Source of the DNA: a virus
Direction: 5' to 3' (one strand)
Virus record (IMG/VR): IMGVR_UViG_3300018890_000001
Span: 135,764-199,763 of that record
Length of the DNA stretch: 64,000 nucleotides
Shown here: positions 14,799 to 38,989 of the stretch, one piece after another
How the letters are laid out: the number at the start of each line of letters is the position of its first letter
Numbering within the stretch: position 1 is the first letter of the stretch
Notes under the pieces: model-generated
Told to the model about the DNA's origin: nothing
The model's input: the letters and a program-made list of their open reading frames with translations, nothing else
Database searches by the model: none
Made by a program: the position numbers and the translations under genes

Positions 14799-15007
14799 TT
14801 GCTTGACTCCTGGTTTTGTGTATTGAGAAGGTTCTCTTCTCTTGTATGTACTAATTATACTATGTATAAAGAATAAAAGCAATAGTTGCGTTCTCATAAG
14901 CTATATAAAGCGGGCGATCGACCAACTTAATTCAATCACCCGTTTGTTTTACTTGTTTTGATAATATTGCTATCGTACAATTAAAATGTACATCAATAGG
15001 AGTTATC

Positions 15008-16458: not shown

Positions 16459-16986
16459 AGTTGATCTGTGATAGAGGTTGGCTCATGCACCAGAAGTTTG
16501 CGCTTCGTGGTGCTATTTATATTTTACTAGAATTTGACGCTGTTTGAGTCTTGACGGGACGAGTGGTGAAACGCGCTAACTACAAGACTTTCAGTATACA
16601 TACAACGATTTTAAGACGGGTGGTTGCGTCTGATTTTTGCAAAGTGGTGGAAGTCTTGTCGGAGAAGGCTCTAGCGATTAAACTTATTGTTTTTGCAAAA
16701 TTGTTCGATCACCTGTTATTACAACGCATTATGTATAGTGGTGGATTCTTTTCGAGGCAAAGGTTTTGGAGTTTTAGATGGTGTTTTATGTATAGTGGTT
16801 AGATCTCCCATAAAAACCATCAGGACGTGTCGCAAAACCCTTATCCGATCGCCCATCACACCCTTCAATCCCACCTACTAGATCGCCCAAAAGGTACAGA
16901 TTTGGGCAAGCTGAGCGAGAATGAAGGGGACAACTAAATTTTCGCCCCACCTTCACCCAGGCAGCGCCATTACCGGCGCTTTTTTT

Positions 16987-22900: not shown

Positions 22901-25900
22901 CTTGGGCGGCGGTTGGTTTAGCTACATTAGGTGCGATTGGTGCTGCGATATATATTGTTGGAAGTCATTTTAATGTCGTTGCGCGCTCAATCCAATTTTT
23001 TGGGTTACTGGGTGGGTCGATGAGTCTACCGATGATTGCTGGCTTAAGTGCGATCATCTTTTTGTTTTTGCAAACCCAGGATGGTTTCAGAGAACTCAAC
23101 GCCATGATTGATGCGCTCAACCATCCTGTGAAATGGTTGCAAGACAGCATGGCAAACATCGCGAAAACGTTTTCAGGTGGAATTAATACCGACTGGATCG
23201 CCTTCTTTGTCGAAAAACTAATCCGCGTCATCCCGATCGTGCTTGGTGGTATCTTCTTACTCGGCTTCGCAGTCAAAAAGCACATCTTCGGTGGTTTCAT
23301 GCTGGTTTGGGATGTTGTCAAAGGAATTGCCAATAGCTTGATTAATGTCGTGCGATCTGCGAAGGCGATTCCAGGTGCAGTTATGGGGATTGGTACGGAA
23401 GGACGGATCTTAGAAGGTGTCCACAAAACCAGGTCTACCCTGGGACTGTACAAAAATCCGCAATCCAAAGACGCGCGTGGAAATGAATTTAAACTCGCCA
23501 AAGAATCCGCAATGCTCAGGGAAAAAGTAATTGGAAATTCCCAAGCACAGATTGTTACATTGGCGCAGCAGCAAAAAACAGATTACGGTCATCTCGCTCG
23601 CGAAGTTGAAGTTACAAAAGGTGGCTTTCTTGGCGTCGGTGCGCGCAAGCAAAAAGAATGGCAATTGACTGGCGCAGGTGAAGAATTTCAACAGAAGCGG
23701 TTGGCTGAAACTCTTGAGGCTAAGACTGGTGTTTTTGGGAATAACGCTTTAAGAGATGTCGCTAAAGAAATCTCTCCTGCGCGTTTGGGAATGATGCAAG
23801 GTGATGAACTGCGGGCGATCTTCATTAAAGATCGACCGGATTTAGCAGCATTAGGTCGTGCTCTCGAAACAATCAAGACGCAGAACGTTTCAGTGATGAA
23901 CGTTGCCAGAATGAACAGTGGTAGTGGTAATGGCACAGGTAATCAAAGTATTGAAAATATTAAATACGGTAGAGCGGAATTAGAGCGGTTAAATGTCAGA
24001 GGGCTAGAAGGTGGTCAAGACAGTTTCGCGTCAACTGAACTCGGTGCTGCTCAAATAACGAAAGCGCTTAAGAATCTGAATGTTCCAGCAGAACAACTAA
24101 CGGACAACTATACAAACCTCAGTTCTACAACCCAAAACACGAGAAAGTTCATTGAGCGATTACTGCAATATCAACTCGCAGCAGCAAGCGGAAAAATAGA
24201 CAACAAAGCTGCCCAAGGTGTCGCAAGTGCCACGCACTTACAAAATCAATTCAAGCTCGATACTGTGGACAGGAGCAAGATTGGAGATCCTGCGCAATTC
24301 CATGAGTTGATGAAGGATAAGGTTGCTGTATTGCAAGCCGCAATACGTAACGGGAGTCATGCCGCGCTAAAGGATTTCAATTTTGATGATGTTGCAAATC
24401 AGTTGAAAGGTGCAACTAGCGAGGAAGATTATCAGTTGCGATTAAAAGGTGCGATCCAAAACATGATGGGGCATCAGCTAAAAACTGTAGAGAACACGTT
24501 TAACCAGACACCTACTATTTTTGAGACAGAAGCTTCTAAATTGAGAAGCATTGCAGGGGAAACGCCAGACAAGATTTCACACGGATTGAAGGGGATCTTT
24601 TCGGATGTTATGGGCGGCATTGGTCAAGCATTTACCAATGCAGCAAAAAAACTTCCCGGTCGCAGAGAGGGATTGTCGAATGAGGCTTTGCGGGCGATCG
24701 ATCGCCAGATTGCGGGCGTTGCACCGTTACCAGATCAAAGAGCGCAGGATTCGCGACGCTCAAAGCTCGAAGCAGCTCAGCGTCAGTTACGCGAAGGTCA
24801 GTTGAATTCCGAGAAGCAACAGCAAGTCTTGCAGAATATTGCAAATTTGATCCAGCGCGACGTTTACGAGCTAACACATCCGACAATGAATCCGGAACAA
24901 CTTCGAGCGCGCGTAGATCGGGCAAAAACCGAGCGCGAAAGACTGTTTAACGGAATGCGCGGAGGCAACAAAGCTCTGGAACAATGGATTACTCAATTTA
25001 CGGCAGAAGAACAGCGGGCGATTTCTCAACAGATTAAGGAAGGTCGATTCCGAGGTGGTGCTTTAACCACTAGAGGAGAAGACCGAACAATAACGGAAGG
25101 AACACAACGGAGAATTGTCGCTACTTATAACAATAACGAGGCGAGCTTAGCTCGCGCGCTAGGCTACGAAAATATCAAACAAGTAGAACAGGCTTTTTCT
25201 ACTGATGAGGTACTGAAGAATGCTAAGCAAGGTTGGGGTGCACAACTGAGAAGTCTCATCGGTATTAACGAAGATGCGAACGCATACAACAAGCAAATTG
25301 ATGCTCTTCGGACTCAAATAGACCAGCGCGTAGCAAGACAGACATCTGGATTTGCAGAACGCGAAGCTCGACGGAATGCTGCGATGGCAAACCGTGAATC
25401 GGGTTTCCTTGCACAACTAAATCAAGTTGGTAGAAGTCGTGCAGATTTTACCGCACGACTTAATGCCACGCAGCAAAAGGCATTTGATGATTTCCTGAAA
25501 ACCGGAAAACTACAATCGACAAGACCCGACGAGCAGTTTAAGGGAATGGCTAAACAGTTGGGGTTTGGAGAAGATGACGTATCAGTACAAGCGTTCAAAG
25601 ATTTTCAGGCTGCATTGGGCAAGTCAGAAAATAAAAATATTGCTGAATATTTTAAAAATGCCTTGAACAACGATCCAGAGAAGCTCAGGGGTACAGGATC
25701 TCCTTTTGTTGCCGCAGATGGCACTCAAATAGACAATCCAAACGAACGAATAAAAGAATTGATCCGAAATGCTGTTCCGCCAGAACGACGCGCTGCGGCA
25801 TGGGATCAGTTAGAACGAATGAGTGCTAATCGACGACGGAGTAGTCAAAATCCTGATGCACTACAAGCTTGGGAACACGCAATTGATTATCTTGCAACAG

Positions 25901-28900
25901 GTCGAGATACTACTGATTTGACTGTTGATCAAATTGCAGAAATTGGTCGTGCAATGGAATTGCAAGGTGATAACGAATCTGTTGCAATGCAGTTGCGCTC
26001 GATCGCCAACCAAAGAAATACGGGATTTGGATCTATCACTGACAGCATCAAGAGTTTCTTGAAGAATATTGAAACTGATGCGGAAAGCGTAGAAGAATAC
26101 ATCCACAACCGATTGACGGACATGAGTTCGTTTAGCGTATTCGGCGTTCATCCGTTTGCTACGCTCAGTGATGTTTTGCGAAACGTACTGTTCGAGCCGA
26201 TAGTATCCCTAGTAAAAGGAACTTGGAAATGGCTAGCAAATGCGATCGGCAATATTGGTACAAATGCTGCTGCGCTAAAGGCAAGAGCTACTGGAATGTT
26301 GGCTTCCCTGCCTGGTGTTCGGACTTTTGCACAAGCCCGCCAGCGACGCGAAACAGATCGCCAAAGCAGCTTGCAGAGTTTGAGTGCAAAAATGGGTTAC
26401 GAGAACCAAGAGAAATTTGCAGAAGAATTTAAAAAAGCCTTGGCTTCTAGAGGAATTACCGAAGGTCGTCTACAGAACAAAGCTTTGCAGGCAATTCTCA
26501 ACAGCAGGCGATCGAAAGGTGTGGCAGAAACACTGAACACCAGTCGCTTTCAGGAAATTCAAGACAATAGTGGCAAAATTGGTGAAGCTTTGGCTGCAAC
26601 TCTTGGACTTAACGGCAGTCCCGAAGAAATCGCGAAGCTTTTGGCACCGGGTGGATTTACAACTAGAGCTGTATCACCGCTGAGAAACTATTTCCTTAAA
26701 GCTGTAGTTCCGGCGATTGTTGATGTGGGTTTAGCTCCGCTGAAATTAATGTGGAAGATTGTCAGGAATCCAGGTTTGTCGTTGACAGCAATAAAAACTA
26801 AAACAGGTCAGATTGCAGATGCTGTTGCTGACTTCATGGTTTCGTCCTACACGACGATCCGCAGAACGTTTTCGTATGCAGCGACGCAGCTTGGTAAGGT
26901 TCCGCTGTTCGGTAAGATATGGGGCGCGGTTTCTGGCTTCTTCGGTAAGATTGCGTCGAGAATTCAAGGGATGGCAGCACCAGCAACTACGCAGCGACTA
27001 CGAGAAGAACAAGCTCGTAGACGATCGCCCGAAGTTAACTTGTCTCGCGCTCGTGGAGGTACATTCCCAGTAGAAAATCTACCGGATGCACCGCAAGCTG
27101 AAATCCAAAGATTGAACAATACGATCGCCAGCTTGTCTCAGTTCCGCGCTCAAGAAATTTCGCGTTTGAATCCGTTCAAGCGACTGCTTGTTTTTGCAAC
27201 AACAGCCGCTAGGGGGGCGAAAGAGGCTTGGAGGCAAACAGCAGAAGAAATTTCAGCAGGTGGCTGGCGCGGATTGGTCGCAAGATTCAAGCGCATCGGG
27301 TACTTACTGAAACGCAATATCTCAGAAGGATCTCCCGGACCTTCTGCCGACACTCGCGCTAACTGGGAACACACCCAGCAATCTGTTAGTGCAAACATGG
27401 GTGAGATGGCTGCGAGTGCACAAGTCGCGGGTCAACAAATTCAAGGTGATATGCAGCGGACGGCTCGACGCTCTGCCGGATTCCTGGGAGCATTACATGG
27501 TGCGGTTGCTGGTGCCGGGAAAGCAGGTATGGCGGTCGGTGGTGCAATTACGGCGATCGGTTTTGCCGCGCAAACTGCCAGCTACTCGCTTGTTAATATG
27601 GGGCTTTTAGATGAAGCTAGTGCAGCGAACCTCAATAAATTCCTCGAAATCTTCACTCTCGTTGGCGCGGTCGGTGGATTGATGGCTCCTGTGATGGGTG
27701 CGATCGTCTCCAGCGTCATGGCGATCGGATCTGCGTTTGCTTTAATCTTCAATCCCGTCACGCTGACAATGGCTGCGATCACTGGTGGCATTCTTCTAGC
27801 TAACGAAGGATTGAAGCGGTTTGCCGGCATCGACTTGCTCGGTCCACTATTTACCAATGTGCAGGAACCGATTCAGGGGACGATCGCCTTCATTCAAGGA
27901 AAAATTGACGAAGTGTTTCTGTGGATGACCGACAAATTCGGTACGCAACTTAGTCCAATCCTCGAACCAATGGGCGCTGCTGTCGCGACAATTCAGGGCG
28001 CGTGGCAGGGATTTGTTGATTGGTTTACTGCGATGCCTTTGGTGCAGACGGCGATCGACATCGGTATGGGACTCATTAACGCTCTCAACCATAACCCGAC
28101 GGTTCAGATTCCGCTGGCGTGGGAAGGGGCGATCGAAAACATCAAGGGAATGCTGTTCAATTTGCCATTTGTCGGTGACTTGATCGCTGGCTTAATGAAG
28201 GATTCGCTTGACCCTACAAAAATCCTTGGTAATTTATTCCAAGGATTCCACAATATGCTGGATCAACTAGAGAGCAGCGGTCTTGCCAGATTTGGTGGCG
28301 GTAAAATGCTCGATGGTTTGCGCGGATTCCTGGGTGGCTTTGGCAAGAAGAAAGCTGAAGTGGCAACCGAAATCCCAGTCGAAGCCGGTGTCAAATTGAA
28401 TTACAAAGAATCGCTGGAAGCCGCTATCCGACAAGCTGATTTCGACGCACGTTCTGGTTCCGCGACTGCCCAGGCAGCATCAGCAAACTTGCAGTATCAA
28501 ATGCAAACTACAGGTGGGCAAATGGACGCCAACCAACTTGGCGCTGCCTATCAAGGTGCGGGTGGAGAATTCTTACAAAAGGCAATTTCCAAAGAAAATA
28601 ATCGTCTTTTCTTAGATCAAGGTGCAGCAGCTAAAGAAAAGCGCGCATCAATTGAGCAAGAATTGCAGACTATCAACCAAAAAGAAGTTGCGCTGCAAGC
28701 GAGTTATGTACAGGCTATCGAAAAAGTCCAGGTAGCCGCAGCAGCTCCGGCACCAACTAATTTCATTCAAAAGTTACTGGGGGGTGGCGACCAGGTAGCT
28801 AAGTTTACGGCTCAAGCTGAAGCGGTTTCTCAGACGATGGTTGCTTTGAAGGAACAGAAGGTGGCGATCGAAAAACAAGTTGCTGCTAGCAGTGTCGTAT

Positions 28901-31518
28901 TTGACGCCGGCACGGATCGGATGCTCAAAAATATGGGTATCGATCCAGATGGTTTGATTGTTGCCGTAGCCGAAGCCAAAACTGCAATCTCGACAGGTAT
29001 AAAAGAAGTTGGTTACGCGGTATCCGATCGCTGGCGTTACTTAGAAAGAAGCAATGGTGGAAATCTCAGTGCAATGATGACGACTGATCTTAAGAAAGCT
29101 GGTGGCGCGTTCCGTATTCTCAAGGGAGATGTCGCTGATTTTGCCAAGCGCGCCGGAACTTCTCTCAGTCAGATGGATTGGGTGGGTTTCAAAGCCGCTG
29201 CTGGAGATTTTTGGACTAACCTTAAATTCGGATTAGGTCAAATTACTTCTGGATTTGGCGGTGCTGGATTGAGCGCGTTGCTGTTCTACGTCCACCTATC
29301 ACCGCTGGCATTTGTTTTAGGTGGGATCGCTTTAGCAGGTTTGGCAATCGCCACCAACTTCTTGGGATTGAGATCTATTCTCATGGGATTGATTCGCTCC
29401 TTTACCGGATTCACGCAAGTCGCTGTATCGAGCGTGATGATGATAATCAACGTTGTTCGCGGTTTGGTGAAGATTTTTGGTGGTATCCCCGACGCCTTGC
29501 GCGGTGACTTTACCAGATTAGGAGAAGGAGTTGAAATCGTTTGGACTGGTATTAAAGACGGTGCTCGCGGTTTGCTCCGAGGACTCGGGAACATCTTTGG
29601 TGGTGGGATTGAAGTTTTAGGGGGAATATTTGAAGGGCTGCGCCAAACAATTAACGTCGTATTCGGACCTGCGCTAATTAATTCAGCGCGTGAAGCTGTA
29701 ACCGCGATCAAGCAATTGTTTGAGTCTGCTGGCGAGACGATTACCTCAGCGCTTAAAAAGCCAGGTCAACTTCTAGACGGCATCGCCAACCGCTTCCGCA
29801 AAGGAAAAGAGCAAGTTACGGATTCACCAATTGGTAGAACGGTGGGGGCGATCGCTGAGGTTGCCAGCGGTAATGCACCAAATATGGATGCTGCCAGAGT
29901 CGCCCACGACTTCGATATGCGAATGCGTGGGAAAGATCCGGATGCAGAACTAACTGCTGGCGATCGGGCGCGCCTCGCTCAAAGTCAGATGGAAAACGTA
30001 CTATCTACTGGATTTGACACTTCGCGACATTTAGGGGTTGATGTTATTCGTCCGACAAGCAATCAAAACGTCTTGAGCGATATCGACGATGAATTGCGGA
30101 GAGCCGAAGCTGGATTGGGAAGTATGAGAGATCGCAGCGTGTCCGCGGCCGGCGCAGCAAACGACGCTTTATCTTCGCTGGGTGTTGCACTCAGTTCGTT
30201 TGCACCGGCACTGGCAGCGCCACTATTTATGGTGGGCGATCTATTGAGTGGATTTACCGGGATGTCGTTGGCTCTACCGCAACTGAGTGCGATGTTCCCA
30301 GGCGTATCCGCAGCAATTGGCGGATTTACTACTGCTTTGTCGGCCGGTGGCTTAACGGCGACTGGCATTATTGCCGGATTGGGTACAGTATTTACCGGCA
30401 CGATGGCGGCAATTAGTTCCGCAGCTTCGATCGCCTGGGTAGCAATTAGTGGACCGATGCTACCGCTGTTTATATTGGTTGCTGGATTAGTTGCTGCGTT
30501 CGTGTTATTCAAAACCAACTTCCTTGGCTTTGGTGACATCGTTTCTGGAGTCTTCACAGGTATCCAAGATGCTTTCGGTGGAATTTGGCAGGTGATCGTC
30601 GACGGTATCCGCGACATTGGATCGACGATCGGTAAAATAGCGGGTTATTTAATCAAGCCACTCGAACCGCTGCTGCAACTATTTGGCATCAGTCCCGGAA
30701 ACCTTGGTAGTCAACTACAAACCGCGTTTGTGTCCAATGCGATCGCCACAATACTTCGACCAATTCAGACGATCGGCTTCGTCATCAAAACAACGCTCCA
30801 AATTGTATTTGCTGTTATCAAAGCGGTTCTGTGGCTCGGTGGATTGATTGTCAGAATTATTTTGACGCCGATCGCGCTTGTCACGAATGCTGTTGCCGGA
30901 ATTCTTCGCGGATTCCAAGCACTCGGCTCAATCCTTGGCTCTGTAATAATGACACCGTTCCAATTCTTGCAAGGTGTGGTGTCTTGGATTTGGAATAAGT
31001 TAATGCAATTGCCTGCACTTCTCGGACAGGCGATCGCCAACGTTCCGTTAATCGGACCTTTGCTTCAGAATTTAGGCAACACTATTTTCCAAGGTGGCGC
31101 GCAAACACCTGTACAGCAGTTCGCATCCGGTGGTGCGGTCGTCGGTCCTGGCTCCGGTACTGCTGACAGGATTCCAGCGTTACTGTCTAATGGTGAATTT
31201 GTAGTATCTGCAAAACCAGCCCAGGAAAATATGGGCTTGTTGACCGCACTCAATGAAGGTCGCAGCGTTGAAGTGATGCCAATGCCTGCACCGACGCGAA
31301 TTCCGCTGGCGATCGCCAGCAAAGGTGAAGCTGTGCAAGCGGATGCCGTACCAAAACAGATGCCACCTGTTGAAATTAATATCAATTTACAAGGTGACAT
31401 AGTATTGGCTGGTACTAATTCAGCAGCAGATGCACAAGAATTTCTCACAAAAATAGAACCTTATCTACAACAAGCTGTATGGGGAATGTTCCGAAATTGG
31501 GTTGATTTTAACCGCTAA
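16987..31518 (+). CDS. Giant tail tape measure protein (~4,843 aa)
   Basis: TP901-like core (AMELQQSLGGVKK..AAGSFFNRL), long amphipathic Ala/Gly repeats and C-terminal FASGG.V.GPGSGT.D.IPA.LSNGEFV motif. Confidence 0.9.
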   Translation: MSDQYGLESNFKFAASSNSFSQMDRVIALLEGIEKATKDTAQTIANTSLGKDLMKSLNADGVKREGKEIQGAVKQIGNALSPLKAEFRALRAESRNIDFGDMTDTHQFKQAASEVDRYIKKLKELENQISGDSPGDREFKAGLQSQQRAAGNKVQMAKANRDAALATERLSFSQAVQGAGQGVIDTFSDPLAAAMELQQSLGGVKKLADDLSAAGAQTLQNQVFNLSARLGIEDTKVASIFEDLAGSGKKFGDEMGGVGSRIAEVEQILKNQQALDISEGAATQLDVTLGSIYKNLVSKDPNAIVELNARVASSVNELADKLSDVRISAEDVIPVMNVVMNTVGDAANFPIDQIAAYSAAIASLGTIEPEAAGSFFNRLSAKMSENTAAFAGALNISSEEFERKLNTDKLGVVTDLAEAYKNVQGGELKQGSFFASIGIGSVQDQKLLQGLSNNLDTLRSAAVVSKAGFMGKEVHETIDATGKKVMSLGENLKQLSIDKEVANRLQQADFQSKRFETSLKALKDTLGSAVVSVLTPLMSIASDIIGAFISLTQIAPGLTKVVASLTFGAGALAVAIGGAGVALFTFQQAQAVATTAAITMQSSLIPLTGFFQTSMNAFKGTFPWTNAFKQSTVVAEEFGVAANGAKGLIAGELQTAFIGLRAQVMMTSQAALGMGRAFMLSPLGIAVGSFLLLDQLLQRANPQVRLLGTLFSVFSSVAGFAFGILEGFVGAFLKLLKVPAGVAGGLLASPFTAIAQALEFAMESFKNWERSGKHIGESIFNILANPFIFAASATAGAWDKTISFIAGLLKPLADLAAYIGHFIQGSLSEASPGPSLMTRKNWAFTAASMVGSFLLMQVSSIVTGTAIRKAMGAAAAWVVTNWQTAVTNVNSFFSGLTLPDTLTNFATEIGNAWNNTFGMMASGWTNFVNVFTSTTPDFGGLAFAGMAAMKPLLAWGLPDIVSENFDKITQPRSPAVSPATAPQIQQPPTVTQPEPILQISEQVQETQTIWQQMWTRIGDLTQQGIDRVRRAIETNLGAGVLAFVDKLGVIVTTFVQHYITIADAFKGQGGNNFAAPFVGAALIIWETAKAAGALSKEFMHFEEGFLHKVIDNFNLLGFTALMLSSMLMNLVTVPFESLRALPGLLGLITGGVLSFFGLGSQKLLEEGASKYVSFLKVFDRPGIGTAIAKGLPGIVAILMGMNVFEDLTQQWTATLIGWSNTLPQIVEGAVVGLESVFNLVEPLLRSVYPEGINIFPAEEVRGQIYATLGEVGAIFATFWQNIATSAGKVGDAIKPIFEAIATVKLMTVPQLFANYMGFGDAVQPVTNFIHSLPLLGMPIAELTVIEAAIGAIFDLLRSPTLKGFVGFLTGPLFNSLVVIGKTFFTLGSTIAIAFLGIPIFIAKNALEKARIAGEATKKGLLAPLVKGATVAKQAVIDQLRLLPGMISGLLRKIPIIGTFVASAFDIAMRGIGKVFVLAQEALPGYLDAMRSQLGVLKTAFVGLGVALQAVGMSLVGAAKYIINEALIPLAEAIGFLNPFKLIALYAQTKGLQGVTKGVNPIDLAVTGIDDAFVAISTKLGAFGKLEGEALKTAQGAFRPLSNLLSASVSTTAKNIADQAKNVAGAVAGGTGEAIDRAFPIRVLSAKLLAVRKTYLSTKAALAYDKAYVMGFNLGPVTEGFVLMRAVFVPMLQIVARAAFSWMTYYTVLEAITPALLNTVDAFARAHTELGFFSKIILGTTFILRVLRFAVVDTTNAVIKFSTTFFKTFQVLAPIVGKTAGIIAYGIGLIIKGATLGVQTLMTVMLLPVVAVSKVMQGILIAVKYVTQQIAAEVASFGQLFGNLLSAITRGDVVGSIVALGRLIPTLIQFGMAIGFFKLSRFVTAGVIFLAGAAVRTAKDGITLFVTSIVPYTFNLARRVGMAITHGIVVGAKQGASTLFFIFAALDRAITRTGNYVANAVGIVGENLAQMRAWAAVGLATLGAIGAAIYIVGSHFNVVARSIQFFGLLGGSMSLPMIAGLSAIIFLFLQTQDGFRELNAMIDALNHPVKWLQDSMANIAKTFSGGINTDWIAFFVEKLIRVIPIVLGGIFLLGFAVKKHIFGGFMLVWDVVKGIANSLINVVRSAKAIPGAVMGIGTEGRILEGVHKTRSTLGLYKNPQSKDARGNEFKLAKESAMLREKVIGNSQAQIVTLAQQQKTDYGHLAREVEVTKGGFLGVGARKQKEWQLTGAGEEFQQKRLAETLEAKTGVFGNNALRDVAKEISPARLGMMQGDELRAIFIKDRPDLAALGRALETIKTQNVSVMNVARMNSGSGNGTGNQSIENIKYGRAELERLNVRGLEGGQDSFASTELGAAQITKALKNLNVPAEQLTDNYTNLSSTTQNTRKFIERLLQYQLAAASGKIDNKAAQGVASATHLQNQFKLDTVDRSKIGDPAQFHELMKDKVAVLQAAIRNGSHAALKDFNFDDVANQLKGATSEEDYQLRLKGAIQNMMGHQLKTVENTFNQTPTIFETEASKLRSIAGETPDKISHGLKGIFSDVMGGIGQAFTNAAKKLPGRREGLSNEALRAIDRQIAGVAPLPDQRAQDSRRSKLEAAQRQLREGQLNSEKQQQVLQNIANLIQRDVYELTHPTMNPEQLRARVDRAKTERERLFNGMRGGNKALEQWITQFTAEEQRAISQQIKEGRFRGGALTTRGEDRTITEGTQRRIVATYNNNEASLARALGYENIKQVEQAFSTDEVLKNAKQGWGAQLRSLIGINEDANAYNKQIDALRTQIDQRVARQTSGFAEREARRNAAMANRESGFLAQLNQVGRSRADFTARLNATQQKAFDDFLKTGKLQSTRPDEQFKGMAKQLGFGEDDVSVQAFKDFQAALGKSENKNIAEYFKNALNNDPEKLRGTGSPFVAADGTQIDNPNERIKELIRNAVPPERRAAAWDQLERMSANRRRSSQNPDALQAWEHAIDYLATGRDTTDLTVDQIAEIGRAMELQGDNESVAMQLRSIANQRNTGFGSITDSIKSFLKNIETDAESVEEYIHNRLTDMSSFSVFGVHPFATLSDVLRNVLFEPIVSLVKGTWKWLANAIGNIGTNAAALKARATGMLASLPGVRTFAQARQRRETDRQSSLQSLSAKMGYENQEKFAEEFKKALASRGITEGRLQNKALQAILNSRRSKGVAETLNTSRFQEIQDNSGKIGEALAATLGLNGSPEEIAKLLAPGGFTTRAVSPLRNYFLKAVVPAIVDVGLAPLKLMWKIVRNPGLSLTAIKTKTGQIADAVADFMVSSYTTIRRTFSYAATQLGKVPLFGKIWGAVSGFFGKIASRIQGMAAPATTQRLREEQARRRSPEVNLSRARGGTFPVENLPDAPQAEIQRLNNTIASLSQFRAQEISRLNPFKRLLVFATTAARGAKEAWRQTAEEISAGGWRGLVARFKRIGYLLKRNISEGSPGPSADTRANWEHTQQSVSANMGEMAASAQVAGQQIQGDMQRTARRSAGFLGALHGAVAGAGKAGMAVGGAITAIGFAAQTASYSLVNMGLLDEASAANLNKFLEIFTLVGAVGGLMAPVMGAIVSSVMAIGSAFALIFNPVTLTMAAITGGILLANEGLKRFAGIDLLGPLFTNVQEPIQGTIAFIQGKIDEVFLWMTDKFGTQLSPILEPMGAAVATIQGAWQGFVDWFTAMPLVQTAIDIGMGLINALNHNPTVQIPLAWEGAIENIKGMLFNLPFVGDLIAGLMKDSLDPTKILGNLFQGFHNMLDQLESSGLARFGGGKMLDGLRGFLGGFGKKKAEVATEIPVEAGVKLNYKESLEAAIRQADFDARSGSATAQAASANLQYQMQTTGGQMDANQLGAAYQGAGGEFLQKAISKENNRLFLDQGAAAKEKRASIEQELQTINQKEVALQASYVQAIEKVQVAAAAPAPTNFIQKLLGGGDQVAKFTAQAEAVSQTMVALKEQKVAIEKQVAASSVVFDAGTDRMLKNMGIDPDGLIVAVAEAKTAISTGIKEVGYAVSDRWRYLERSNGGNLSAMMTTDLKKAGGAFRILKGDVADFAKRAGTSLSQMDWVGFKAAAGDFWTNLKFGLGQITSGFGGAGLSALLFYVHLSPLAFVLGGIALAGLAIATNFLGLRSILMGLIRSFTGFTQVAVSSVMMIINVVRGLVKIFGGIPDALRGDFTRLGEGVEIVWTGIKDGARGLLRGLGNIFGGGIEVLGGIFEGLRQTINVVFGPALINSAREAVTAIKQLFESAGETITSALKKPGQLLDGIANRFRKGKEQVTDSPIGRTVGAIAEVASGNAPNMDAARVAHDFDMRMRGKDPDAELTAGDRARLAQSQMENVLSTGFDTSRHLGVDVIRPTSNQNVLSDIDDELRRAEAGLGSMRDRSVSAAGAANDALSSLGVALSSFAPALAAPLFMVGDLLSGFTGMSLALPQLSAMFPGVSAAIGGFTTALSAGGLTATGIIAGLGTVFTGTMAAISSAASIAWVAISGPMLPLFILVAGLVAAFVLFKTNFLGFGDIVSGVFTGIQDAFGGIWQVIVDGIRDIGSTIGKIAGYLIKPLEPLLQLFGISPGNLGSQLQTAFVSNAIATILRPIQTIGFVIKTTLQIVFAVIKAVLWLGGLIVRIILTPIALVTNAVAGILRGFQALGSILGSVIMTPFQFLQGVVSWIWNKLMQLPALLGQAIANVPLIGPLLQNLGNTIFQGGAQTPVQQFASGGAVVGPGSGTADRIPALLSNGEFVVSAKPAQENMGLLTALNEGRSVEVMPMPAPTRIPLAIASKGEAVQADAVPKQMPPVEININLQGDIVLAGTNSAADAQEFLTKIEPYLQQAVWGMFRNWVDFNR

Positions 31519-31606
31519 CCGTAGTATAAAACTTGACTTTATACTACAATTGTAGTATTATTTTTATATGCCCAAATTCTATACATAAAACGGGCATATA
31601 AAAATC

Positions 31607-32470
31607 ATGCAATTAACAATGAATAACGACCAAGCCACAGTTTCTGCTGCAAAGGTGAACCGTTTCGGAAATTGGATAAGCGCAGTTACAAAGAAAGTAA
31701 CAAGCTTGTTCAAAAAAACCAAAAAAGAAACACCCAAGTTCACATTTTCTACGGTTACTGAAGGCATTAGTTTCATTGAATGGCGTACTTGGTACGACCA
31801 GCAAAGAATTGTAAAAACAGTTGAGACAATAGCAGCTACCAAAACTTATCCAGAGCTTTGTAAAGCATTAGGTATTCATTACCAAGCCTTACCCAAAGTA
31901 GCAACTAAGGTCGTCTTAACCGATAATAATTTCGATCGCCGGATGATAAAGCTTTTTAATTTTGAGGGGTTAAACCCACAGACCCAAGCTTTATTGCTTG
32001 GTGGTGAAACAAAAGCACAGAAACTGCCACGAACTCCTGAGTTCGAGAAAATGTTTCTACAAAATATCAGCACAAGGTCACAAGTAGTCAACAACTACGA
32101 AGGCTGGTGGTTGCGAGAGTTCGCTCTCGAACTGAACGCCATACAAGTGGCGATCGATGTGCCTGAAATTGAACAACCTGCTTTACTTGCATTACCAGCA
32201 ACCGAAGAGGTTATTGAAGTGTCATCTGTTACTGAATCTCAAAAAATAACTGAGCAACATATCAATGTTGAACCAGTCGAGACAGAAATAGTTACATTGA
32301 GTGAAGCTGAAAAGCTCGAAAAAACGATTAAAGGGTTACGAAAATTAAGCCTATCTGATTTAAAAACGTTTGCCAAAGCAAACGACATCCACATCAGAGG
32401 CAAAATGACCCAAATCACAAGCATAAGAGAAAAGATTATCCGAGAGTTACGCAAAAAAGCAGCTTCTTAG
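31607..32470 (+). CDS. Hypothetical protein with C-terminal Rho-N/HeH-like domain
   Basis: LRKLSLSDLKTFAKANDI..IREKIIREL; sigma70-like promoter TTGACT..TATTAT upstream. Confidence 0.65.
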   Translation: MQLTMNNDQATVSAAKVNRFGNWISAVTKKVTSLFKKTKKETPKFTFSTVTEGISFIEWRTWYDQQRIVKTVETIAATKTYPELCKALGIHYQALPKVATKVVLTDNNFDRRMIKLFNFEGLNPQTQALLLGGETKAQKLPRTPEFEKMFLQNISTRSQVVNNYEGWWLREFALELNAIQVAIDVPEIEQPALLALPATEEVIEVSSVTESQKITEQHINVEPVETEIVTLSEAEKLEKTIKGLRKLSLSDLKTFAKANDIHIRGKMTQITSIREKIIRELRKKAAS

Positions 32471-32486
32471 TCTTAGTATCAAACCC

Positions 32487-32563
32487 GTCCGCAACTCGTA
32501 AAACAAACGGAGTAATGAGGGTTGTATATTTCGCTGTAAACAGCACATATATAATTAGAGGAT
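32487..32563 (+). ncRNA. Putative 77-nt structured RNA, copy 1
   Basis: Second copy at 38179-38255 (-) has the same length and compensatory base changes. Confidence 0.65.
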
Positions 32564-32668
32564 AGCAAAAACGCCTAACTAACTAATAAATATATTATTT
32601 AGTTAGGCGTTTTCGTTGTATACGCGTATTGCTTGCGGTATATTGATTGTGTAGTTATTGAACATAGA

Positions 32669-33039
32669 TTTGGCATTCACAACAAAAATCGAAGAACCCA
32701 CAGAGTTTGGAGAGTTTTTAGCTTTGAAACGAGAAGCTATTATTTCCGATCTAATCGATCTTTAATCAGACATGAAGGAAATATCCACACGTGATGAGTT
32801 GTGATTGCGAACACAATGGGATGGATGTTCGGCTTATAGTTACTGATGGTAACTGGGAGTTACACACAGGTGATGTGCAATACGGAACACCACAACACAG
32901 TTTCTGGGGAAGTGGTCAGTTAGACTACGACCTTAAGGAATCTGAATTACAGGAACCTATGGAAAGTCTTGCTGATGACTTGATATCGCAAGTCTTAGAT
33001 GATGATACAGCGCAAGACCTAGATAGTTATTGGCAATAA
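32669..33039 (+). pseudogene. Decayed paralog of 33643-33996
   Basis: In-frame TAA at 32763-32765 and a frameshift near 32800; the DVRL..TGD..FWG.G.LDYD motif is retained. Confidence 0.65.
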
Positions 33040-33044
33040 CAAGC

Positions 33045-33093
33045 ATACAAAGCGGGCGATCGCATTAGATTAATGCGATCGCCCGCTTTGTAT
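33045..33093. terminator. HIP1-containing 23-bp-stem hairpin terminator
   Basis: ATACAAAGCGGGCGATCGCATTA-GAT-TAATGCGATCGCCCGCTTTGTAT. Confidence 0.8.
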
Positions 33094-33161
33094 TTAAATG
33101 ATCTATTTGTATGTGGCATACAATTCATGATATAATAAGCATAACTATTTAGCGAAACAAA

Positions 33162-33542
33162 ATGCAAGTAACAGTAAGATCAGCATCATTTTACGAATCT
33201 ATTCTTGGTAAAATAGAAATTGACGATCGACTTTACAGTATCGTCGGAACCTCTGAAGGCGAAGAATGCTTTAGAGATAATGACGCTGGTGGTCAAGAAT
33301 CATACAACCCTCGATCCTTCCATAAGAATAGATTGTGTAAAAGCGACGGGCAGCTCTATTGGGTTTATCGTCGAAGTAGCGGTAATTTGTACCGAGAGGC
33401 AACTACCAACACAGCAGGTGTTGGAAAGTGGGTAAGCAAACCTGAGACGGGAGAGTTTTACTTGGACGAAAGGTGCAGTCGTATTATCTGGAAAAGAGAA
33501 ATTAAAAAAGACGCACAAGGAGGTCTTTACATATTAGATTAA
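33162..33542 (+). CDS. Hypothetical protein
   Basis: 126-aa ORF with its own TATAAT promoter and terminator. Confidence 0.65.
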   Translation: MQVTVRSASFYESILGKIEIDDRLYSIVGTSEGEECFRDNDAGGQESYNPRSFHKNRLCKSDGQLYWVYRRSSGNLYREATTNTAGVGKWVSKPETGEFYLDERCSRIIWKREIKKDAQGGLYILD

Positions 33543-33642
33543 CAAATAAAGCAGGCGATTGAATCAATATTCGATCGCCAGTTTTTATTGTATACCTGTA
33601 TCAATTGTGGTATATTAATCATGTAGTCGTTCTAAGGATTTT

Positions 33643-33996
33643 ATGCTATACAACGAAGCGGGTATCAATATCGAAGAATTTCTGAATTCAGAGAAAGAAT
33701 CGATAGTTACCGATCTAGAAAATGAGTGGCTCCAAATGAAAAAAGTCCTTACCCGCGACGATCTTATTTGTGAAGATTCAGAAGATTTTAGTGGGCTGGA
33801 TGTCCGACTTAGGTTTCACGAGGGTTATCTAGAAATTTTGACTGGTGACAGCTCAATGGATACAGATTATCGTGGATTCTGGGGCTACGGTAGTCTCGAC
33901 TACGACATTGAACCAGAGGAGCTGACCGAGGCGATGACAACCTTGGCGACTGAACTCATTGAAGGCGTCTTAGAACAGGAAGCTATCTCTCGGTAG
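33643..33996 (+). CDS. Small highly acidic phage protein
   Basis: 117 aa, very D/E-rich; GTAGT leader. Confidence 0.75.
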   Translation: MLYNEAGINIEEFLNSEKESIVTDLENEWLQMKKVLTRDDLICEDSEDFSGLDVRLRFHEGYLEILTGDSSMDTDYRGFWGYGSLDYDIEPEELTEAMTTLATELIEGVLEQEAISR

Positions 33997-34094
33997 TGAT
34001 AAATAATAAAGCGGGCGATCGAATTAAATTAATTCGATCGCCCGCTTTTTTGATGATTTCCCCGAAATTTTGGTAATCCGGAGTCAAAAGTTAT

Positions 34095-35441
34095 CAAAAA
34101 CCTGGGTTGAAAACCCCGTCCTTTTAGGATGACTTTAATTAATTGTAAATTTTTGTTGCAATCCTACCTAATTTGTGCTGACTACGTTAGCACAAATGTG
34201 GAGGTAACGCAATGCTAGTTTTTGAGTTTAAATCTTACGGAAAATCAAACCAGTTTGAGGCAGTGGCTGAAGCAATTCGTACCGCTCAGTTTGTCCGCAA
34301 TAGTTGTTTACGCTATTGGATGGACAATCCTAAGAAAAACAAATACGACCTGAATAAATACTGTGCTGTGCTGGCAGCGACGTTTCCGTTTGCTGACGAA
34401 CTCAATTCAACCGCACGACAAGCCAGTGCCGAACGTGCGTGGGCTGCTATCTCCCGATTCTACGAAAACTGCAAGAAAAAACTTCCCGGTAAAAAAGGAT
34501 ATCCTCAATTCCAGAAAGACTGTCGTTCGGTTGAGTATAAGACTAGCGGTTGGAAGCTTGCTGATGACAGGAAGTCGATAACTTTCAAAGACAAGAAAGG
34601 AATTGGGCGATTAAAACTGAAAGGTACACGCGACCTACACTTTTATCAAATCAACCAAATAAAACGGGTTCGCTTGGTAAAACGTGCAGATGGCGTATAC
34701 GTTCAATTCTGTATTGACGTTGACCGGAAAGAGAACAGAGCCCCGACAGGCAATACCATTGGGTTAGACGTTGGGCTAAAAGAATACTATACCGATTCAA
34801 ACGGAGTCACCGTTGAAAATCCTAGATTCTTGAGAAAAGGTGGACGTGTTCTGAAGCTTAGTCAGCGGCGAGTGTCGCGGAAAGTTAAAGGTTCAAACAA
34901 TAGAGGCAAAGCTCGACAGATTCTTGGCAAGCGCCATCTCAAAATAAGCAGGCAACGTAAAGACCATGCCGTGAAATTGGCAAGGTGCGTGGTTCAGTCA
35001 AACGACTTGATAGCCTACGAAGATTTGAGAATTAAAAACATGGCGCAGAATCACTGTCTTGCTAAGTCTATCAACGACGCATCTTGGTATCAGTTCCGTG
35101 TTTGGCTTGAATATTTTGGAAAAGTATTTGAGCGTGTAACGGTTGCGGTAAATCCGCAGTATACCAGTCAAGAATGCTCTAGTTGCGGTGAAAACGTAAA
35201 AAAATCCCTGTCTACTAGAACTCACGCTTGTAAATGTGGATGTGTATTAGATAGGGATGAAAATGCAGCTAGAAATATCCTAAGTCGGGGATTGGGTACG
35301 GTAGGGCATACCGGAACTTTTGCACTAGATGCAAGCAACGCTTCGGGAGAATTGTCCTCTACTTTGGTTGGAGAAATCCAATTAGAGCAAGTCAGCTCGT
35401 AGATCGAAGAATCCCCGTGCGTTTACGCCGGGGAGTGTCAA
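34095..35441 (+). mobile_element. IS200/IS605-family (tnpB-only) element
   Basis: TTAT target, left end CAAAAACCTGGGTTGAAAACCCCGTCC.. and right end GAATCCCCG..CGGGGAGTGTCAA. Guide tetranucleotides AAAA/TTAT and GAAT/TCAA follow the IS608 pairing rule. Confidence 0.9.
34212..35402 (+). CDS. tnpB: RNA-guided endonuclease TnpB
   Basis: RuvC GLDVG / AYEDL / DRDENAA all intact; CSSC..CKC zinc ribbon. Confidence 0.95.
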   Translation: MLVFEFKSYGKSNQFEAVAEAIRTAQFVRNSCLRYWMDNPKKNKYDLNKYCAVLAATFPFADELNSTARQASAERAWAAISRFYENCKKKLPGKKGYPQFQKDCRSVEYKTSGWKLADDRKSITFKDKKGIGRLKLKGTRDLHFYQINQIKRVRLVKRADGVYVQFCIDVDRKENRAPTGNTIGLDVGLKEYYTDSNGVTVENPRFLRKGGRVLKLSQRRVSRKVKGSNNRGKARQILGKRHLKISRQRKDHAVKLARCVVQSNDLIAYEDLRIKNMAQNHCLAKSINDASWYQFRVWLEYFGKVFERVTVAVNPQYTSQECSSCGENVKKSLSTRTHACKCGCVLDRDENAARNILSRGLGTVGHTGTFALDASNASGELSSTLVGEIQLEQVSS

Positions 35442-35911
35442 TACACGTATGTCGTTACTCAAAATTTTTGTGTAGTGGGAAAACCTAAAAACTTGTGTAA
35501 TGGGTCACAAGACCGATCCGCATCAGATGAACACTGTGTAAGTGATTCAAGAATTTTGATCGGATGCGATCTGTGTGTAACGCGAAAAGTCTAAGAATCG
35601 CGATTACCGAAACCAGAGATACAATCCAAAAACGTATCAACTCAACCGTGATACGAAATATACGGATTGATACGAAAATACTTCACGGAAAATCTGCGAT
35701 TTTAGGATTTTTGCATGAAATCGTTTCACTGCCTGGGATTAAGAGTTTACACGATACCAATCCCGCGATACTTCGATACGTATGTGAATACCTAAAAAAT
35801 AGCAGTTTTGACAAAAATTAGTGCCTTTGATACTTTTTTGATACGTGTCAAAATAAAAGTGGGCGATCGATAATTCCGATCGCCCCCTTTTATTTTATTT
35901 CAACCTACTTT

Positions 35912-36676
35912 TCAACCACCGCGCAACACACGATTTTGAACTTGAATCAGTAACCGTTCACTTGTTTGAGCGACGGCATCGTCGGGATGTACATCTTGAA
36001 GATCAATTAACCGCACTGCCGTATCTTCAACCTCCCGGAGCAGCAACAATTCTTTGGAGGTGAGCGCGTCGCGCAAGCTGTCCGGATCTACTGACAAGTC
36101 TTCAGCAAGCTTTTTAGCTTTGCGACCAAACACGACTAACACTACTTGCTGGCTGGCATTGACGTACAACCATTTTTTGCTGTTTTCAGAAAGTTCGGGG
36201 TGGCGATCGATGTAACTTTTGATAGCATCGGTCAGTTCGCGACGCGCTTCCTTACCTTCAAGTCGAGCGGTTTGCCACGCGCTCAACGCTTTTGTCTCTG
36301 GTGGCTTCCAGCCTGTAATTCCTTGAATCCAGGTAAGCATACCCAAATCAGCAAATTTTTCAAGACTGTATTCTGCGACTTCGTTTCCTTCAAAAGCGTA
36401 GTGTTTAACTGTCGCAGTACAGAAATCAGAGCGAAGGATTTTTACTTTACCGCCACGTTTTACGAAATCTTCCATGAGGTGTAAATCCTTACCTATCCAG
36501 GGTTTCAGGCGTTTTGGTGCCTTACCCTTTATGAGGTCACGAACCAGTGTAGATATCGCTGGTTGGGTAACTCCTGACAACCTTGCTAATCCGGAATAAC
36601 TCATTCCAGACTCACCAGTTTCAACAACGGTAAAAAATTCCACACCATCTTCTTCGACACGTATGATTTGAGACAT
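35912..36676 (-). CDS. Phage antirepressor-like DNA-binding protein
   Basis: TGESGMSYSGLARLSGV HTH; C-terminal ARLEGKEARRELTDAIK is shared with the 15616 gene. Confidence 0.7.
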   Translation of the reverse strand: MSQIIRVEEDGVEFFTVVETGESGMSYSGLARLSGVTQPAISTLVRDLIKGKAPKRLKPWIGKDLHLMEDFVKRGGKVKILRSDFCTATVKHYAFEGNEVAEYSLEKFADLGMLTWIQGITGWKPPETKALSAWQTARLEGKEARRELTDAIKSYIDRHPELSENSKKWLYVNASQQVVLVVFGRKAKKLAEDLSVDPDSLRDALTSKELLLLREVEDTAVRLIDLQDVHPDDAVAQTSERLLIQVQNRVLRGG

Positions 36677-36848
36677 AATGGTAGTGCTCCATTTGAATGT
36701 ATGGGACGAATGCCTGAGACACCGCTTCCGCAAGAATTAGTGTCTCCGGTATTTTATTGTGTTGGTTTGTGTCTATTATAGTATTTTATGCCATACTTAT
36801 TAGATGTTGCTTAGTAAACATTGAAAAGCTAAGGCTTAAACAAAAAAA

Positions 36849-37031
36849 ATGCGAATAAAAGGTAAGCCCAATACGGTGTACGACGAACTCAAGGCGCGGA
36901 TTACAGTCTCGATTACGCCTACCGCAGTCAACGGTATCGATGCGATCGCCACTCAGTTAGGGGTAGCGCGCTCTGAGGTTATTGAGCAGATCGGTCGCGG
37001 GATTCTGCAAGTGGTTTTTCCCGGACAGTAG
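36849..37031 (+). CDS. Ribbon-helix-helix/CopG-like protein
   Basis: ITVSITP..IDAIA..GVARSEVIEQIGRG. Confidence 0.75.
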   Translation: MRIKGKPNTVYDELKARITVSITPTAVNGIDAIATQLGVARSEVIEQIGRGILQVVFPGQ

Positions 37032-37106
37032 CGTTTGCAGATTGCTGTCACAATAAAAAGGGGGCGATCGGATTAATGTCCGATCGCCCCCTTTTTATTT
37101 TTATTA

Positions 37107-37436
37107 CTACTCTCCTGGTATCCAGGGAATTCCAAATACTTGAGCCGTATAACAAGCTCTAGCTACTTCTGGATACCCAGAATCTTGAAAAAGCTGTGCT
37201 ATTTTGTGTATATAAGGTCGATTACCAGGAGAACCGACTATCGTTAGTTTTAACACAGCATACACTTGGTTCGTTATCTCAACTTGTTTCTCGCCTAGTA
37301 GCGACTTGAATTTTTCGATTAAATCTAAATCTTGGTTGTTTAGCGTAAAGAATGATATGAGCCACCTTAGATAGCTACGTAATATAGTATACCATATAAC
37401 GACAGCAGTGTTATTGTTATTACAAATGTTAAGCAC
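37107..37436 (-). CDS. Hypothetical protein (start uncertain)
   Basis: ORF converges on a terminator. Confidence 0.4.
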   Translation of the reverse strand: MLNICNNNNTAVVIWYTILRSYLRWLISFFTLNNQDLDLIEKFKSLLGEKQVEITNQVYAVLKLTIVGSPGNRPYIHKIAQLFQDSGYPEVARACYTAQVFGIPWIPGE

Positions 37437-37457
37437 TACAATTATCGGTGACTATCT

Positions 37458-38138
37458 ATGTATTACGCACCATGCCCATCATACACGCTCACGCACAACA
37501 GTGAATTGTTTAATTTGTTGCTTCGTTTAGACGCATTGTTGCTCGATCGCCCAACCAACCGCATCAAGTTACAACCAGCATCCGCGTATTCAGAAATTGC
37601 GCGTCAGGAACTCCAAACCTGGATGCAATACCGCAATCGGTACGTCTTACCAACAGTTGAACTTGTGGACTGGTTGAAAACGAAGCTTGACGGGCGTCGG
37701 GCGATCGAGATTGGCGCAGACCACAGCGATTTAGCTTATCATCTGGGGATTCGGGCGATCGGTAGCCATGCTATGTCGTACACAAGCGGACACGCAGTAC
37801 CTTTGTTTCCCGGTCAAATACCGACGCTCGTTGTATCTTCTGACGTACATCAGATAGATGTTATGCAAGCGATCGTTGAACTCCGACCAGAAGTGGCGAT
37901 CGGTGCTTGGATTCCAAATAAGTTTGCCGATAAATTTGGAGGTAGACCTAAGTACGCACCTAACGAAGATCAAATTATTCAGAATGTCGAGTACATACAT
38001 ATTGGTTGCGAAAGTATTCACGGGCGATCGGCGCTTCTAGGATTTCCGCATGAAATCTTTAAACCTATAGGCATAATGTCACGGACAAACGCAAATCCGC
38101 CAGATGACGTTATTCATGTTTGGAAAAAATTACAATAA
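37458..38138 (+). CDS. SAM-methyltransferase-fold-like phage protein
   Basis: PTVELVDWL..AIEIGAD resembles motif I, but the glycine loop is degenerate. Confidence 0.45.
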   Translation: MYYAPCPSYTLTHNSELFNLLLRLDALLLDRPTNRIKLQPASAYSEIARQELQTWMQYRNRYVLPTVELVDWLKTKLDGRRAIEIGADHSDLAYHLGIRAIGSHAMSYTSGHAVPLFPGQIPTLVVSSDVHQIDVMQAIVELRPEVAIGAWIPNKFADKFGGRPKYAPNEDQIIQNVEYIHIGCESIHGRSALLGFPHEIFKPIGIMSRTNANPPDDVIHVWKKLQ

Positions 38139-38178
38139 AAAAGACCCATCGATCAACTTGATCGATGGGTCTTTTTAT

Positions 38179-38255
38179 GCCCTCTAGTTAAATAAGTGGT
38201 CTTTAAACCAAAATATTTAACCCTCGTTACTCCGTTTGTTTTACGAGTTGCGGAC
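38179..38255 (-). ncRNA. Putative 77-nt structured RNA, copy 2
   Basis: Matches copy 1; lies between the stop codon of 38284-38817 and a terminator. Confidence 0.65.
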
Positions 38256-38283: not shown

Positions 38284-38817
38284 TTACAAACCACCCAAAC
38301 GTTGTATAAATCCAATAGCGAATGCTACAGCGAAATATATTGTGTATGTGAACATTACATACAAAAAGTAGTAACTGTGTCTTTGATTACGTGTTAAGCT
38401 TGCGTAAGCTTGTACGAGTTTATCGAAGATGCAGCAAAGTATTTCAAATATTGCTTTGAACAATACGAGATACTCGAAGGTGGTGACACCACTCTCAGGT
38501 AACGTCATAAACCCGATCGCTATAAAATTCACAATCACTGCTACTTCTAGCAGCCACCGTGGAACGGTGCGCAGCGCGAATATTACGGCATAGAGCATAA
38601 CAAAACTGATGTATACTAGATTGACTCCTACCGCGTAAGCGGAAGCGCTAATCAAAGCTAGACTTACCAGTTTGTTAGGTACACTCCCTGGCAGGATAGC
38701 TTGTTTTTTAATATTAAGTACAGCAGTTTCGATTGCGGTTACTACCTTCGTAGCACCTGTAATCAGTGTCGAAGTGATAGAAACGGCGATAGATGCTGTG
38801 CTATTAATTAAGTTCAT
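38284..38817 (-). CDS. Multi-pass membrane protein
   Basis: ATG 38817; 4-5 hydrophobic segments; TTGACT..TATATT promoter. Confidence 0.7.
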   Translation of the reverse strand: MNLINSTASIAVSITSTLITGATKVVTAIETAVLNIKKQAILPGSVPNKLVSLALISASAYAVGVNLVYISFVMLYAVIFALRTVPRWLLEVAVIVNFIAIGFMTLPESGVTTFEYLVLFKAIFEILCCIFDKLVQAYASLTRNQRHSYYFLYVMFTYTIYFAVAFAIGFIQRLGGL

Positions 38818-38989
38818 TTGTTTGTTAAACACCTTGGTTGTTATTTGAATTTTGGGTGTTTTTCTCCTTACATATAATATACCAGTATTTATACTTAAAG
38901 TCAAGTAAATATAGGTGTACAAAGGATTTAAAGTATAAATAGACAATAAAAAACGAGGTGTTTGAACAAACACCTCGTTTTTTTTAGAT

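Follow-up and report, generated by a model that had tools for sequence, protein, structure and literature searches.

The DNA analyzed here, referred to as the window, is a stretch of 64,000 nt (positions 135,764 to 199,763 of the IMG/VR virus record IMGVR_UViG_3300018890_000001) that forms the terminal 64 kb of a phage record with a total length of 199,763 bp. The window carries a 77-nt RNA element in two copies, one on each strand, located behind two genes (A and B) that are unrelated to each other. An earlier note, made from the letters of the window, had placed both copies between a stop codon and a terminator, and inspection of the sequence confirmed their length, coordinates, strands, and setting. 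The genes and features at the locus are listed below, with the three helices of the element named P1, P2, and P3.

31533 to 31600, plus strand: 5′ end of transcript A, with the promoter TTGACT-17-TATTAT (31533 to 31561) followed by a 5′-terminal hairpin (31565 to 31600)
31607 to 32470, plus strand: gene A, 287 aa, of a family ending in a SAP/Rho_N-type helix-extended-helix domain
32487 to 32563, plus strand: motif copy A, 77 nt, scoring 75.7 bits with model R1 (E 7e-19)
32487 to 32490 with 32560 to 32563, plus strand: P1 of copy A
32495 to 32499 with 32515 to 32519, plus strand: P2 of copy A, around the near-invariant loop 32500 to 32514
32521 to 32555, plus strand: P3 of copy A
32567 to 32613, plus strand: intrinsic terminator 3 nt past copy A, folding separately from the motif
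38138 to 38176, minus strand: intrinsic terminator 2 nt past copy B, bidirectional and common to the convergent gene 37458 to 38138
38179 to 38255, minus strand: motif copy B, 77 nt, its three helices arranged as in copy A when read on this strand (93.5 bits, E 6e-24)
38284 to 38817, minus strand: gene B, encoding a membrane protein of 177 aa (counted from ATG 38817) with about four hydrophobic segments
38827 to 38904, minus strand: 5′ end of transcript B, with the promoter TTGACT-17-TATATT (38904 to 38876) followed by a 5′ hairpin (38861 to 38827)

Copies A and B can be aligned end to end without gaps. As described previously in the note, their first 37 nt differ at a single position, which is position 30 (T in A and C in B). 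The 29-nt core occurs exactly twice in the window compared with no occurrence in 100 shuffles. Copy A starts 16 nt past the TAG stop codon of the open reading frame (ORF) at 31607–32470, and copy B starts 28 nt past the TAA stop codon of the minus-strand gene ending at 38284. The compensatory pairings that had been listed for the two copies were all present, namely GTTGTATA/TATATAAT in one copy versus GTTAAATA/TATTTAAC in the other, GCTG-TAAA-CAGC versus GGTT-TAAA-GACC, and GTCC/GGAT versus GTCC/GGGC.

In total, 20 distinct copies of the element were collected from at least 10 phage contigs, using pattern scans of viral and metagenome contigs, contigs from independent assemblies carrying gene A homologs, and a model scan of cyanobacterial genomes. 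The search for further covarying homologs, a check named beforehand, was thus successful. Nineteen copies belong to one phage clade. The remaining, divergent copy was found on contig G053:C319, which has a length of 19.7 kb and had been assigned to the bin of a Microcoleaceae genome; since the proteins of this contig are 40–75% identical to those of the phage studied here, it represents a more distant phage relative. Model scans of the whole 199,763-bp record and of a complete 188-kb relative gave exactly two copies per genome and no weaker ones. This relative carries direct terminal repeats, and the record itself corresponds to a free phage genome of ~200 kb; the label of prophage, used in the earlier note, was therefore not demonstrated. 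No match to the motif was obtained by megablast against 50,697 deposited phages or by a pattern scan of 185,579 prokaryote species genomes. Models R1 and R2 detected no chromosomal copy in 5 genomes of Microcoleus itself, 144 from its family, and 151 from its order, the one real match being on a phage-like contig. Four other model matches were rejected as chance, two of them (L112 and L114) lying within coding DNA and two (L115 and L116) having no stop codon and terminator context. Searches anchored in proteins (the 226-aa neighbor described below and a conserved 360-aa protein) returned only members of the same clade, or short fragments without the locus.

RNAalifold together with explicit pair counts gave a three-way junction. 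P1 is a closing helix of 4 bp, P2 consists of 5 bp under an almost invariant loop of 15 nt, and P3 forms a long hairpin that covaries freely and ends in a UAAA(A) loop, while the conserved junction strands read GCAA, G, and UAGA. In the 20-copy alignment, which is fitted to the model, 85.7% of the cells are paired and 15 of 22 pairs have changed on both sides. None of 500 shuffled controls reached these counts, and pairing fell to 31–44% when the partners were slid. An ungapped MAFFT alignment of 13 copies was 95% paired, with double changes at 8 of 17 pairs (0 of 500 shuffles). Compensatory changes were found in all three helices: P1 pairs include G-C, G-U, A-U, U-A, U-G, and C-G, and 9 of the 13 P3 pairs show double changes. 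In P2, two copies (L127 and L131) have CGC...GCG where all others have CUC...GAG, with the upstream GGAG unchanged. Pair 10:32 is accordingly changed from U-A to G-C in these copies; pair 12:30 is A-U, G-C, or G-U in 19 of the 20 copies, and pair 13:29 is U-A or G-C where paired. The double change at 10:32 and the covariation at 12:30 and 13:29 assign P2 to positions 9–13 with 29–33. An alternative P2, pairing C9–C11 with G24–G26, was ruled out by the CGC/GCG variants, and the C6–G72 pair predicted by RNAalifold was discarded, being broken in L012 and missing in L113. A pair between 22 and 72 is compatible with the copies, but is based on one change only. A small ORF was also considered and rejected, as the AUG at 29–31 of A-type copies is ACG in B-type copies and the frames are not conserved.

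Across the alignment, G-U and U-G pairs outnumber A-C and C-A pairs by 18 to 1, and the fold therefore belongs to the mRNA-sense RNA and not to duplex DNA or the other strand. We consider it highly probable that the motif is a structured element at the RNA level. The covarying RNA structure with three helices round a junction, which the earlier note had seen after two unrelated genes, is thus borne out by 20 copies.

The P2 hairpin is the most constrained part of this fold. AAAC and GGAGUA are invariant in all 20 copies, as are A25-G26-U27-A28 and A15-A16, with G or A at position 14. Variation in the hairpin is limited to the base of the helix (12–14 and 29–30) and to the predicted end loop (19, 20, and 22), which in the divergent copy has six bases. 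The sequence of the loop has AGUA opposite GAA within a helix with canonical flanks, here P2 on one side and the invariant C18–G23 pair on the other, which is the consensus of a loop-E or bulged-G module; its geometry is deduced from this consensus. The P2 loop is thus a putative loop-E/bulged-G module in which R14-A15-A16 would lie opposite A25-G26-U27-A28 and C18–G23 would close a variable end loop of 4–6 nt. Loop E of 5S rRNA and the sarcin-ricin loop of 23S rRNA likewise have an invariant A-G-U-A opposite R-A-A between Watson–Crick flanks. This module differs from the motif as a whole in being a local building block only, which specifies neither a family nor a function. Bulged-G modules are common docking sites for proteins and RNA.

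Between genomes, positions 1–35 of the element are 93–98% identical and positions 70–77 are 85–92% identical, compared with 44–45% for the last 270 nt of the upstream genes, 60–62% for P3, and 57–63% for the terminators. Each copy lies 9–28 nt past a stop codon (TAA or TAG) and 1–8 nt before a long, perfect terminator. In 13 copies, the terminator folds independently of the motif, the spacer between them is variable, and no alternative pairing is conserved. The sequence just upstream of the copies is not conserved across genomes, and no promoter-like site was found just upstream of either copy in the window. Synteny is conserved: a giant ORF is followed by gene A, copy A with its terminator, a variable island of 2.4–5.8 kb, the 226-aa gene, and the shared terminator, after which copy B, preceded in its transcript by gene B, occupies the opposite strand and reads back toward that terminator.

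Genes A and B form single-gene units with near-consensus promoters. The TTGACTTT promoters (31533–31561 on the plus strand and 38904–38876 on the minus strand) and the 5′ hairpins with A/C-rich loops, both mentioned in the earlier note, were confirmed. The hairpins are positioned at the very 5′ end of the transcripts, their stems end in CCC/GGG, and they have related loops rich in A, C, and U; the leaders of both transcripts are A/C-rich and have no Shine–Dalgarno sequence. Of 28 matches to TTGAC-type promoters in the 200-kb genome, only those of A and B lead into a CCC...GGG 5′ hairpin. The combination of promoter type and 5′ hairpin is thus unmatched at other promoter-like sites in the genome, in agreement with the distinct transcript class that had been proposed. 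The two host genes had been described as encoding a Rho-N-like protein and a membrane protein, which fits the SAP/Rho_N-type tail of gene A and the hydrophobic segments of gene B. In the gene A family, SAP was matched by four of nine members and Rho_N by three of nine, all weakly. The protein upstream of the divergent copy shares the C-terminal 42-residue SAP/Rho_N-type domain (hhalign probability 96.8%, E 2e-10), and this divergent relative keeps the promoter, the 5′ hairpin, the gene with the SAP-type tail, the motif, and the terminator.

Some further observations concern the region upstream of gene A. The spacer of the gene A promoter (window 31542–31557, plus strand) is a perfect palindrome, TACTACAATTGTAGTA, which is conserved in relatives (see also L020 around 6240–6300), and in one relative a second copy lies just upstream. 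The palindrome, which includes GTAGT, the word that marks the other promoter class of the phage, has the appearance of an operator bound by a dimeric repressor. The giant ORF (16921–31518, plus strand), which encodes 4865 aa, stops 88 nt short of gene A. It is 76–94% identical in relatives over its C-terminal part and has a length of ~4820–4830 aa in two other assemblies.

Our preferred interpretation, which we hold tentatively, is that the motif is a cis-acting element recognized by a protein and setting the stability or processing of the two mRNAs that carry it. Control in cis is favored because the motif is packaged with a matching 5′ element on exactly two mRNAs, and a site read by a protein is favored because proteins typically dock on surfaces of this kind, with a bulged-G module next to a conserved junction. 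The P2 loop module and the junction would form the recognition surface, to which a trans-acting protein of phage or host origin would bind on both mRNAs. With the 5′ hairpin and the terminator protecting the two ends, the factor bound at the motif, together with the matching 5′-terminal hairpins, would determine how long these two single-gene transcripts, both with strong promoters, persist or how they are processed. The bound factor could shield or reinforce the 3′ end; alternatively, it could direct a timed cut that removes the protective terminator and exposes the mRNA to decay. A candidate for this partner is the SAP/Rho_N-type tail of gene A itself, since the domain and the motif travel together even in the distant relative, with which no other parts are held in common. 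Several points weigh against this interpretation. No recognizable L7Ae, RRM, or RegA-type protein is encoded by the phages; the matching 5′ hairpins would also be compatible with a trans-acting RNA that is simply expressed at a high level; and the sequence conservation exceeds what a passive stabilizer needs, so that a ligand pocket or a catalytic core fits equally well. In addition, the putative loop-E module is derived from a sequence consensus and not from three-dimensional geometry. The 3′-UTR (untranslated region) stabilizing stem-loops of plastids and cyanobacteria resemble the motif in being a folded mRNA 3′ end that plausibly affects 3′ end stability or protein binding. However, those are simple hairpins with little sequence constraint, whereas the motif is a junction RNA with ~35 near-invariant bases, and the Rfam models of plastid 3′-UTRs match it only through the terminator hairpin and far below threshold.

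A rather unlikely alternative is that the RNA acts in trans. Processing would then free a ~125-nt RNA consisting of motif and terminator, for example one acting as a sponge or decoy that captures a defence ribonuclease or an RNA-binding protein of the host, and genes A and B would, with the same rather low probability, be merely two expression platforms for one RNA. The same RNA is indeed found behind two unrelated genes with near-consensus promoters, and it shares the terminator of the mRNA as known 3′-derived small RNAs (sRNAs) do, every copy lying 1–8 nt upstream of a terminator. The outer part of P3 also points in this direction, as it is of one type (I) in both copies of the present genome (G0) and of L126, and of another type (II) in G1, G2, and M18. 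Such concerted change is expected if both copies match one partner, but it is also explicable by a single gene-conversion event. A trans-acting RNA is further opposed by the lack of a promoter-like site just upstream of either window copy, and of any conserved sequence or obvious processing signal before the copies across genomes; the shared 5′ hairpins would, moreover, be unnecessary. Complementary sites in the phage genome occur at chance frequency. An antisense seed was accordingly rejected, since complementary 10-mers in the phage are at chance level and no seed with phage targets stands out; the longest complementary phage site (13 nt, window 14940–14952) is probably due to chance, as judged in this genome alone. 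In their position between a stop codon and the terminator of the mRNA, from which the RNA could be freed by processing, the 3′-UTR-derived sRNAs of enterobacteria (CpxQ, SroC, and DapZ type) are similar to the motif. Unlike the motif, whose conserved bases sit in a compact fold, they use a short single-stranded seed with Hfq, and the motif has no enriched target in the phage and belongs to a phage of a cyanobacterial host.

It is clearly unlikely, although conceivable, that the motif is itself active and represents a new class of functional RNA, that is, a self-cleaving ribozyme or a ligand- or protein-triggered 3′-UTR switch that would time the destruction of two end-protected mRNAs. Two more specific forms of RNA activity were considered. 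In the first, which we regard as very unlikely, the motif controls termination, either as a ligand-binding aptamer or as a put-like RNA altering RNA polymerase, so that the adjacent terminator is read through conditionally. Conserved junction and loop bases combined with freely varying stems are typical of aptamers, and a terminator follows the element directly. The occurrence of two diverged copies in one phage is also reminiscent of putL and putR of phage HK022, which are cis-acting antitermination RNAs. Like put, the motif is a folded RNA of ~70 nt present as two diverged copies per phage genome, in oppositely oriented transcription units, with stems kept by compensatory changes and as part of its own transcript. 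In contrast to the motif, which is a three-way junction after a coding region, put consists of two promoter-proximal stem-loops upstream of genes, and copy B has no sense genes downstream; no sequence likeness between the two is known. A shared role in termination is unlikely because transcription starts afresh from a new promoter with a GTAGT-type start downstream of the copy A terminator, because only the antisense strand of the convergent gene lies beyond copy B, and because the terminator does not compete with the motif, the two being separate modules with a spacer of 1–8 nt and no conserved alternative pairing. G1 and M18, furthermore, have no minus-strand gene between the copies. In terminating riboswitches the closing helix competes with the terminator and the regulated gene lies downstream, an arrangement not seen for the motif, and no riboswitch family was matched even at E up to 10. 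The glnA (glutamine) riboswitch of cyanobacteria and cyanophages is a small three-stem junction with an E-loop-like element, a likeness that is a lead only. The Rfam glnA and Downstream-peptide models did not match the motif even at E up to 10, and those riboswitches are located upstream of genes whereas the motif follows them.

The second form, in which the motif is a new small self-cleaving ribozyme whose cut removes the terminator and thereby causes decay of both mRNAs, is very improbable. Small ribozymes are common in phages, the motif is a compact junction RNA with near-invariant unpaired bases, and a 3′-UTR position would suit mRNA destabilization. On the other hand, no match was obtained to hammerhead, twister, twister-sister, pistol, hatchet, or HDV-like models, the core consensus sequences of these ribozymes are absent from the motif, and the setting between a 5′ hairpin and a strong terminator looks built for stability and not for decay.

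The remaining alternatives concern the island between the two copies and the conformation of the junction. Among close relatives, the inter-copy segment ranges from 2.4 to 5.8 kb and varies in gene content. The only genes shared between islands are a small duplicated family (32791–33039 and 33643–33996) and the 226-aa gene. Its main features are the following.

32564 to 38178: island in the window (8765 to 12625 in L005, 1675 to 5225 in L018, and 8934 to 11242 in L126)
34212 to 35402, plus strand: TnpB gene with OrfB_IS605 and Cas12f1-like TNB domains, found in this genome only
35912 to 36733, minus strand: 273-aa protein matching phrog_2657 (E 5e-15), a family of phage transcriptional regulators; contig L020 is the only other one to have it
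37458 to 38138, plus strand: conserved 226-aa gene, converging on gene B and sharing its terminator

The 226-aa protein contains an EIGAGxGDL stretch resembling methyltransferase motif I, and no Pfam family was matched. Many copies on the chromosomes of Microcoleus and further filamentous cyanobacteria are 90–92% identical to this TnpB gene, which indicates a recent insertion from the host and makes Microcoleus the probable host of the phage. Four terminators of the island (33046–33092, 34008–34048, 35861–35885, and 37052–37099) are formed by palindromes of the GCGATCGC type. This word is highly iterated in cyanobacterial genomes and fits a cyanobacterial host. Three contigs from independent assemblies (L128, L129, and L130) end 30–31 nt past copy A, within its terminator, and these ends probably mark an assembly break at the start of the variable island.

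A function of the inverted copies at the DNA level, in which they would anchor recombination of the variable island or act as transposon ends or inversion sites, is extremely unlikely. The copies do bracket a segment that varies in length (2.4–5.8 kb) and gene content, and the B-type bases at positions 12–22 of copy A in the present genome, together with the P3 types shared within genomes, indicate exchange between the copies. The concerted evolution of A and B within genomes points to gene conversion between these inverted copies or to a partner common to both. A primary role as a DNA site is opposed by the excess of G-U over A-C pairs and the covariation in the hairpins, which are properties of an RNA from one strand. 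It is opposed further by the absence of flanking direct repeats, by an island orientation that is identical in all genomes compared, and by a conserved core that is not a dyad. Neither the ORFs between the copies nor those next to them showed a recombinase domain, and no recombinase or transposase lies between the copies except TnpB, which is unique to the present genome. Gin/Hin inversion systems have an adjacent recombinase, dyad crossover sites, and both orientations, none of which is seen at this locus, and the inversion sites that the earlier note had raised as an alternative thus gained no support.

The earlier note had also proposed that the junction is a k-turn or k-junction, with sheared G-A pairs in tandem and an L7Ae-type protein as the binding partner. 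The purine-rich junction strands (GAGGG and UAGAGG) would suit this fold, but it deserves almost no credence, since it needs GAG 31–33 free to meet AGA 71–73 by sheared pairs, whereas these bases are Watson–Crick paired with C9–C11 in P2, where 10:32, 12:30, and 13:29 covary as Watson–Crick or G-U pairs. A helix followed by a 3-nt bulge and GA opposite GA was found on no strand of the motif. The proposed binding partner was likewise not recovered, as the L7Ae family (PF01248) is absent from two complete phages (G000 and G001) and from a Microcoleus genome (G004), in a search whose control matched 7 of 14 reference genomes.

Comparison with databases gave no known counterpart of the motif as a cis-acting element or otherwise. 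The whole window had no match in Rfam 15 at gathering thresholds, and at E up to 10, copies A and B and the divergent copy gave only terminator-driven matches far below threshold; no tRNA or tmRNA genes were found. A survey from 2023 (PMC10690425) predicted structured RNAs by the thousands in the same virus collection, IMG/VR. No paper describing the present RNA was found in a literature search that did not include comparison with the predictions of that survey. As a structured untranslated element of a phage mRNA, the motif belongs to a known general kind, within which it forms a new RNA family that stands out by its 3′ position, its distribution over two genes, and its unusually strong sequence constraint.

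With ~35 bases nearly fixed while the neighboring genes have diverged to ~44% nucleotide identity, something specific must read this RNA. Folded RNAs located after bacterial and phage genes are little studied, and almost none combine strong covariation with this degree of sequence constraint. The motif would add a new RNA family to the databases, and the two mRNAs marked by it and by the shared 5′ hairpin constitute a small, experimentally tractable post-transcriptional regulon in a large phage that probably infects Microcoleus. Should the partner be a nuclease, a defence protein, a metabolite, or the RNA itself, the motif would represent a new mechanism of 3′-end control. An RNA class with its own activity would, if true, be a 3′-end control device of a type not yet described in phages or cyanobacteria.

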